From Escherichia coli (GTDB taxonomy: Bacteria > Pseudomonadota > Gammaproteobacteria > Enterobacterales > Enterobacteriaceae), in NCBI RefSeq assembly GCF_011045215.1, contig NZ_CP049201.1: DNA of 64,000 nucleotides; one strand, written 5' to 3'. Under the pieces are notes generated by a model. The model worked only from the letters and a program-made list of their open reading frames with translations, made no database searches and was not told the DNA's origin. This document shows positions 26,131 through 26,161 of this stretch, piece by piece; the first letter of the stretch is position 1, and every line of letters starts with the position of its first letter. The translations under genes were made by a program, and so were the position numbers.

Positions 26131-26161
26131 GATACGGCGATAATATAATTATCGCCGTATC
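26131..26161. promoter_or_regulatory. Perfect 14-3-14 palindrome (candidate operator or hairpin)
   Basis: GATACGGCGATAAT-ATA-ATTATCGCCGTATC, 23 bp after the stop of the OMP gene, upstream of a small wHTH gene; no T-tract after it. Confidence 0.3.

Follow-up and report, generated by a model that had tools for sequence, protein, structure and literature searches.

The question raised by this locus is whether a perfect palindrome, lying in the spacer between an OMP-like gene and the gene of a small regulator-like protein, acts in RNA, is bound by protein in DNA, or is a functionless by-product of DNA metabolism. The window, by which we mean the whole stretch of 64,000 nucleotides analysed here, reads GATACGGCGATAATATAATTATCGCCGTATC at 26131-26161, in two 14-nt arms separated by the 3-nt spacer ATA. 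The initial annotation had described a perfect 31-bp palindrome with 14-bp arms and a 3-bp ATA spacer between an OMP gene and a PapI-like gene, and both the repeat and its location between these genes are confirmed (Table 1).

A palindrome far above chance expectation

By our own estimate, about 0.003 perfect inverted repeats are expected per 64 kb when the arms measure at least 14 nt and the spacer at most 12 nt. The window holds two of them, at 26131-26161 and at 39934-39966, and the former appeared in none of 100 dinucleotide-preserving shuffles. The palindrome at 26131-26161 is far above chance expectation. Folded as RNA, the 31-mer reaches -19.4 kcal/mol, against -4.0 +/- 2.4 kcal/mol in shuffles (z = -6.4), in a stem with an AU-rich top and 6 G-C pairs among its 14. 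Within the 197-nt spacer no other strong structure is predicted, and this hairpin dominates the fold of the spacer as a whole. Seen as a DNA site of 31 bp, the two-fold symmetry is equally perfect.

Table 1. Positions of the palindrome, its neighbours and related features in the window
Feature	Position	Strand	Basis or property
Palindrome, left arm GATACGGCGATAAT	26131..26144	+	100% complementary to 26148-26161
Palindrome, spacer/loop ATA (3 nt)	26145..26147	+	predicted triloop of the hairpin
Palindrome, right arm ATTATCGCCGTATC	26148..26161	+	100% complementary to the left arm
19-bp unit ATATAATTATCGCCGTATC (last 2 nt of left arm, loop and right arm)	26143..26161	+	alignment, extracted intergenic regions, TRF
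Four-gene block: deacetylase, GT4 glycosyltransferase, VirK/DUF535, OMP-like	22177..26108	+	ORFs, RefSeq annotation of C5 plasmid A, Pfam
OMP-like gene (317 aa, C-terminal ...GEYRF, signal-peptide-like N-terminus)	25155..26108	+	ORF, weak Pfam match
AT-rich block (26-34% GC) with Shine-Dalgarno AGGAG	26195..26305	+	87% identical in the paralog
PefI/PapI-like winged-helix gene (83 aa)	26306..26557	+	remote homology, profile, fold model
Second perfect palindrome ATATACCGGAGAGGT-TCC-ACCTCTCCGGTATAT (15-bp arms, 3-nt loop)	39934-39966		-24.1 kcal/mol, no T-tract

The palindrome begins 22 nt past the stop codon of the OMP-like gene (26106-26108), and 145 nt separate its end from the start of the 83-aa gene. 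The four upstream genes are co-directional on the + strand with intergenic gaps of just 3-81 nt; the polysaccharide deacetylase is shf/pgdA-like and the GT4 glycosyltransferase capU-like. The order deacetylase-glycosyltransferase-VirK recalls the shf(pgdA)-capU-virK(-msbB2) locus on plasmids of Shigella and EAEC (PMC7355660). In Pfam, the 317-aa product of the last gene matched OMP_b-brl at E = 0.0076, which is below the cut-off. The AT-rich block upstream of the 83-aa gene presumably holds the promoter and leader of that gene, and a strict consensus promoter scan gave no match within it. Beyond the 83-aa gene follow genes for a DUF4056 protein, a 291-aa protein whose family is unknown and an AraC-type regulator (28729-29568). 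Just 3' of the AraC-like gene, at window ~30200-32070 (from L001 14101-15968), a phosphoadenosine phosphosulfate reductase-like gene and then an IbrB-like gene form an IbrA/IbrB-type pair with IS66 remnants on either side.

At 99.9% identity, the region matches E. coli C5 plasmid A as well as other IncF plasmids from cattle and sheep. The replicon is a mosaic, since the T6SS cluster in the right-hand part of the window is nearest to that of a Citrobacter plasmid. The T6SS genes (tssB/C/H/K/L, hcp and vgrG, window ~42100-55300) are 93.6% identical to those of the Citrobacter sp. TSA-1 plasmid, and C5 plasmid A does not carry the cluster at the corresponding position. Homologues of the OMP-like gene on a Serratia proteamaculans plasmid (L006 4398-7788) and in Klebsiella aerogenes (L005 4491-6640) are contiguous with a gene for an OMP of the BamA/TamA family. 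In Serratia the DUF4056 gene also belongs to this OMP and BamA/TamA-like module, whose genes abut without gaps; in the window, the OMP/BamA-TamA/DUF4056-type module is split by the spacer and the PefI-like gene.

The protein encoded beyond the spacer has few relatives. It had no direct match in Pfam (including PF04703 FaeA), in NCBIfam or among PDB sequences. In 5.8 billion proteins its sequences fall into just two clusters at 90% identity, and 1.84 billion representatives yielded two marginal relatives. The protein is encoded in 600 or more public assemblies. PF04703 FaeA was matched by its remote relatives (P0003 and P0004) only. The 83-aa protein is 27% identical to the annotated FaeA/PapI protein encoded at 21807-22022. 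A six-sequence profile of its family, which includes that annotated protein as a possible contributor to the matches, hit PefI (4e-7) and PapI (9e-5) in the PDB. The AF2 model (pLDDT 84.5) has its best PDB fold match in PefI (2jt1, TM 0.67/0.77), with PapI (2htj) also among the matches. A W-[FY]-L motif is present at the C-terminus, and its W is invariant in alignment A5. We accept the protein as a remote PefI/PapI-type winged helix on the strength of profile, remote relatives and modelled fold, and the "PapI-like" label of the initial annotation stands in this remote sense.

A further ORF of 89 aa (MRLIPPVTRT...ERKWFLVTK) lies at window 21501-21770, directly upstream of the FaeA/PapI gene; on the near-identical C5 plasmid A, RefSeq does not annotate it. 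Its product can be aligned to the 83-aa PefI-like protein with 31% identity and has the invariant W at its C-terminus as well, which brings the PapI/PefI-like genes in the window to three.

Copies and natural variants of the palindrome

In a BLAST search of 5,426 complete E. coli genomes and 72,556 PLSDB plasmids, a 43-nt probe found only the locus itself and one paralog. A degenerate core pattern gave chance matches only among GTDB representatives, one genome per species (Clostridium, Shewanella and assorted MAGs), and a 23-nt pattern gave one identical copy and two unrelated matches in JGI metagenomes. These searches rule out a dispersed repeat, a REP element or the end of a mobile element. 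A common dispersed repeat, one of the two findings that would have counted against the initial annotation, can be set aside.

The spacer is identical in all single-copy records examined, i.e. in the window, in 11 further E. coli contigs or plasmids and in one metagenome contig. Variation among close relatives takes the form of tandem copies of a 19-bp unit: the unit occurs once in the window, twice in three E. fergusonii plasmids (L002 4044-4082) and 3.1 times in E. coli pRHB24-C10_2 (L003 4044-4101; TRF period 19, 100% match). The perfect hairpin is still present in the variants with two and three arm copies. The borders of the unit have only 1 nt of microhomology in common, and no obvious microhomology would explain the first duplication by slippage.

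The paralog is a 650-bp segment (the counterpart of window ~25947-26597) on a second plasmid type, located at 3990-4640 of L004 (C5 plasmid B) and at 2620-3275 of L017, and is ~80% identical to the locus in the window. In it, the palindrome and the small gene are preceded by what is left of the 3' part of the OMP gene, frameshifted and decayed. Whatever maintains pairing in the paralog is not tied to the OMP gene, because only this remnant of it is present there. The segment sits downstream of a PefC/AfrB-type fimbrial operon and beside a Rop gene, and it has a 35-nt insertion past the palindrome with a small inverted repeat of its own (CCTCC...GGAGG).

In L017 the palindrome is 81% identical to that in the window, the same as its flanks (64-87%), and 13 of the 14 pairs are kept: at stem positions 5 and 8 C-G has become U-A, at position 4 A-U has become G-U, and position 2 is broken. 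When six random substitutions were simulated, at least 13 kept pairs or at least two compensatory changes arose with P ~0.01-0.05; a shuffle control on the three-sequence alignment, which is a weak control, gave 58 of 500. The L017 sequence folds to -13.3 kcal/mol on the + strand versus -10.7 kcal/mol on the - strand, the single G-U pair being formed in the + strand transcript only. L004 carries one further mismatch and folds to just -6.9 kcal/mol, and the constraint on pairing may be relaxed in this copy. The AT-rich 15-bp core, GATAAT-ATA-ATTATC, is unchanged in L017, where 19% of the surrounding positions differ (0.81^15 ~0.04).

This comparative evidence on pairing comes from one diverged lineage with two sequences, L017 and L004, and the compensatory changes are suggestive, not conclusive, of maintained pairing. 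A deeper alignment of the spacer for covariation is impossible because the 83-aa protein has so few relatives. RNAalifold proposed an enclosing 9-bp helix and a hairpin ahead of the Shine-Dalgarno sequence. Such a larger conserved RNA structure is not supported, since only transitions have occurred in it, which preserve G-U or A-U pairs near-automatically, and two pairs break; the paralog's own MFE fold differs from the proposal (z = -1.7). A search of window 25000-27500 against Rfam at E <= 5 gave no relevant family. With no Rfam match and no conserved extended structure, the evidence points to an ordinary gene-3' stem-loop rather than to a special regulatory RNA.

A proposed 3' stem-loop and its rivals

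The reading that we favour, and to which we would give roughly an even chance, is that the palindrome specifies a 3' RNA stem-loop of the four-gene operon that lacks a U-tract and would block exonucleases or partly insulate the operon. We infer that transcripts of the deacetylase-glycosyltransferase-VirK-OMP operon would have the palindrome in their tail, where it would fold into a 14-bp hairpin of -19 kcal/mol 22 nt past the last stop codon. Transcription would end further downstream, or an endonuclease would cut in the AU-rich spacer, and 3'-to-5' exonucleases (PNPase, RNase II) would then trim the RNA to the base of the hairpin and halt there. The 3' end of the upstream mRNA would thereby be placed at the hairpin base, defined and stabilised, and this mRNA would be uncoupled from the PefI-like regulator gene, which has an AT-rich upstream region of its own. 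Some pausing or attenuation ahead of the regulator gene may come in addition, whereas efficient intrinsic termination is not expected, because no U-tract follows the hairpin.

This stem-loop reading is favoured because the palindrome follows so closely on the last stop codon of the operon and is the only strong structure in the spacer, because its predicted stability lies far outside that of shuffled sequences, because the paralog retains nearly all pairs through compensatory changes and G-U pairing, and because amplification of one arm leaves the hairpin intact. It is favoured also because a parallel hairpin (39934-39966) stands after a porin gene in the same window. In porin genes on pF17EC0245-1 and on plasmid P1 of isolate 538, a hairpin is kept at the same place with a different sequence, i.e. 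it covaries. In the window this second palindrome begins 14 nt past the stop of the OmpC/PhoE-like porin ORF at 39281-39919; only the C-terminal 212 aa lie in one ORF, and the porin gene may be disrupted.

The initial annotation had left the choice between the binding site of a dimeric regulator and a structured RNA element. Its RNA alternative gains from the position 22 nt past the operon end, the compensatory changes and the G-U pair, while its regulator alternative gains no support: the window has no second good half-site, and the promoter-like match discussed below is not conserved in the paralog.

Protective 3' stem-loops have been defined as stable stem-loops past a gene with no U-rich sequence after them (PMC6061677), and a mild downstream enrichment of C over G has been reported for Rho-dependent termini. 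The palindrome is a stable stem-loop without a U-rich tail, but enrichment of C over G is not seen downstream: GC skew is +0.09 to +0.43 across 26120-26320 (G>C). Because the downstream sequence is G>C and not C>G, there is no apparent rut site or Rho loading. Against the stem-loop reading count, in addition, the single diverged lineage behind the comparison, the further mismatch in L004 and the decay of the OMP gene in that lineage. It must also be noted that the paired changes in the paralog could come from intrastrand templated repair of a DNA palindrome, without any function in RNA.

Repair of this kind is central to the next reading, which we regard as unlikely, namely that the palindrome is functionless. 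It would then have arisen incidentally during replication or repair, by hairpin-templated copying or template switching, where a small-gene cassette met the OMP module; intrastrand correction rather than selection would hold it symmetric, and it would be prone to arm amplification. The spacer and the small gene do look inserted, given that the Serratia OMP, BamA/TamA-like and DUF4056 genes abut, and the varying copy number of one arm among near-identical plasmids is a sign of local instability. The paralog copy in L004 is decaying, and the primary sequence of the palindrome is conserved no better than its flanks. However, a long perfect palindrome is as a rule unstable in E. coli, and despite the instability to be expected the single-copy records examined show no difference in this one. 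The two compensatory pairs would require selection or a special correction mechanism, and the covarying 3' hairpin of the porin gene indicates that functional hairpins of like build exist in this window.

Decidedly unlikely in our view is a DNA operator, in which a dimeric or Lrp-type multimeric protein would bind the symmetric site, perhaps the core only, and control the PefI-like gene or the operon boundary, with extra arms adding half-sites. Perfect symmetry is what such a site would display, but a perfect palindrome of 31 bp is far longer than usual operator contacts. The unchanged core in L017, which has a chance probability of ~0.04, would suit a protein that contacts the core; a core-only site, however, gives no reason for the compensatory changes in the outer stem, and the G.T at stem position 4 breaks the symmetry of the DNA and not the pairing of the RNA. 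On plasmid B the palindrome and the small regulator gene have jointly outlasted the OMP gene, but the AT-rich block conserved beside the small gene lies 35-145 nt downstream of the palindrome. A weak promoter-like match, AAGACA-16-GATAAT (9/12), and a TATAAT overlap the palindrome, yet the paralog does not keep the -35-like hexamer, L017 having AATACT in its place, and a promoter inside the palindrome is not supported.

PapI-family proteins act with Lrp, and Lrp binds AT-rich, roughly symmetric sites, so that a neighbouring gene of the PapI family would fit co-action with Lrp at a site of this kind. The spacer contains no GATC, however, which rules out a Pap-style Dam/Lrp switch. PefI/PapI-type proteins are monomeric co-regulators, and the MarA/Rob members of the AraC family bind asymmetric sites as monomers. 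Regulators of the PefI/PapI-like and AraC/Rob-like types normally use no long palindromic operators, and it is to these types that the neighbouring regulators belong. Nor does the window offer a second good copy of the half-site. Allowing up to 3 mismatches, ATTATCGCCGTATC occurs 14 times in the 64 kb, versus 4.5 +/- 2.0 in shuffles, an excess that is probably compositional. The best match has 2 mismatches (53987-54000), and one match falls within the OMP gene at 26043-26056, 90 nt upstream.

Other DNA sites were compared with the palindrome by eye. IHF, marbox and Lrp consensus sequences gave poor matches that are leads only. An Xer (dif/cer-type) site has 11-bp arms, a 6-8 bp centre and a conserved XerD arm, TTATGTTAAAT. 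Against this consensus only the inner ATAA/TTAT of the palindrome matches, the centre would be 5 bp and the XerD arm agrees at 4 of 11 positions, again a poor match and a lead only.

As regards termination, no T- or U-tract follows the stem on either strand, the tail being AGGAUAAAU on the + strand (9 nt, 2 U) and CACCGGGCUG on the - strand. The terminator scan did not call the palindrome and found no canonical terminator anywhere in the spacer. A canonical intrinsic terminator is ruled out by the absence of a 7-8 nt U-tract and of a scan call, in agreement with the original assessment of the palindrome as a poor intrinsic terminator without a T-tract. Very unlikely, too, is a weak non-canonical terminator or RNA polymerase pause hairpin, which would halt some transcripts and attenuate read-through into the PefI-like, DUF4056 and AraC genes. 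The position and stability of the hairpin speak for it as they do for the favoured reading, as does the want of a canonical terminator in the spacer, and Dar & Sorek raised the possibility of inefficient low-U intrinsic terminators that are also terminated by Rho (PMC6061677). On the other hand, the 9 nt past the stem hold only 2 U, and hairpin-dependent release in E. coli needs a weak rU-dA hybrid (PMC6061677).

Far-fetched, finally, is the notion of a hypervariable control point, at which one, two or three copies of the 19-bp unit would change RNA pairings or the number of protein half-sites and so act as a copy-number contingency switch, tuning read-through or insulation between the surface-polysaccharide/OMP operon and the PefI-like regulator.

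Meaning and comparison with known systems

If the favoured reading is true, an uncharacterised plasmid operon (deacetylase, glycosyltransferase, VirK and OMP-like) has its 3' boundary at the palindrome, which sets this operon apart from the PefI-like regulator and the DUF4056/AraC block. The palindrome would help to define transcription units on IncF plasmids of livestock E. coli and of E. fergusonii, and would be one more protective hairpin lacking a U-tract in DNA of horizontal origin, which is poor in canonical terminators. General understanding is left unchanged by the finding.

The palindrome resembles a canonical intrinsic terminator in being a stem-loop 22 nt past a stop codon at the end of an operon. 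It differs in that the canonical terminator has a U-tract of 7-8 nt, which is missing here, and in that only 6 of its 14 stem pairs are G-C. With REP/BIME elements it shares the form of an extragenic palindrome of ~30-35 nt at the 3' side of a gene, but these are dispersed whereas the palindrome is single-copy and locus-specific, with one paralog. The porin hairpin at 39934-39966 is likewise a perfect stem with a 3-nt loop just past an OMP gene and without a U-tract; its sequence is unrelated, however, and a second small hairpin, GUGG...CCAC-UUU, follows it.

Hairpins that follow internal cistrons make parts of an operon's mRNA decay differently, as with the malE-malF REP, menBCE and papBA (PMC5927463). 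The palindrome is like these intra-operon protective hairpins in its place just past one cistron with co-directional genes beyond, and in the AU-rich single-stranded stretch after the hairpin, a candidate for RNase E cleavage. In contrast to malE-malF, it is no REP, and a separate conserved AT-rich block precedes the next gene.

With the protective 3' stem-loops of Rho-dependent or processed ends, the palindrome shares a terminator-like energy, a position near the coding region, and the lack of a U-rich tract after and of an A-tract before the stem. It departs from them in showing no C>G bias or rut downstream and in the unusual length of its perfect duplex (14 bp), which has an AU-rich top and ends in a triloop. 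Gene-3' stem-loops without a U-tract are documented genome-wide in E. coli, and on the favoured reading the palindrome is an ordinary kind of element, its sole unusual aspect being that close relatives have one hairpin arm amplified in tandem.
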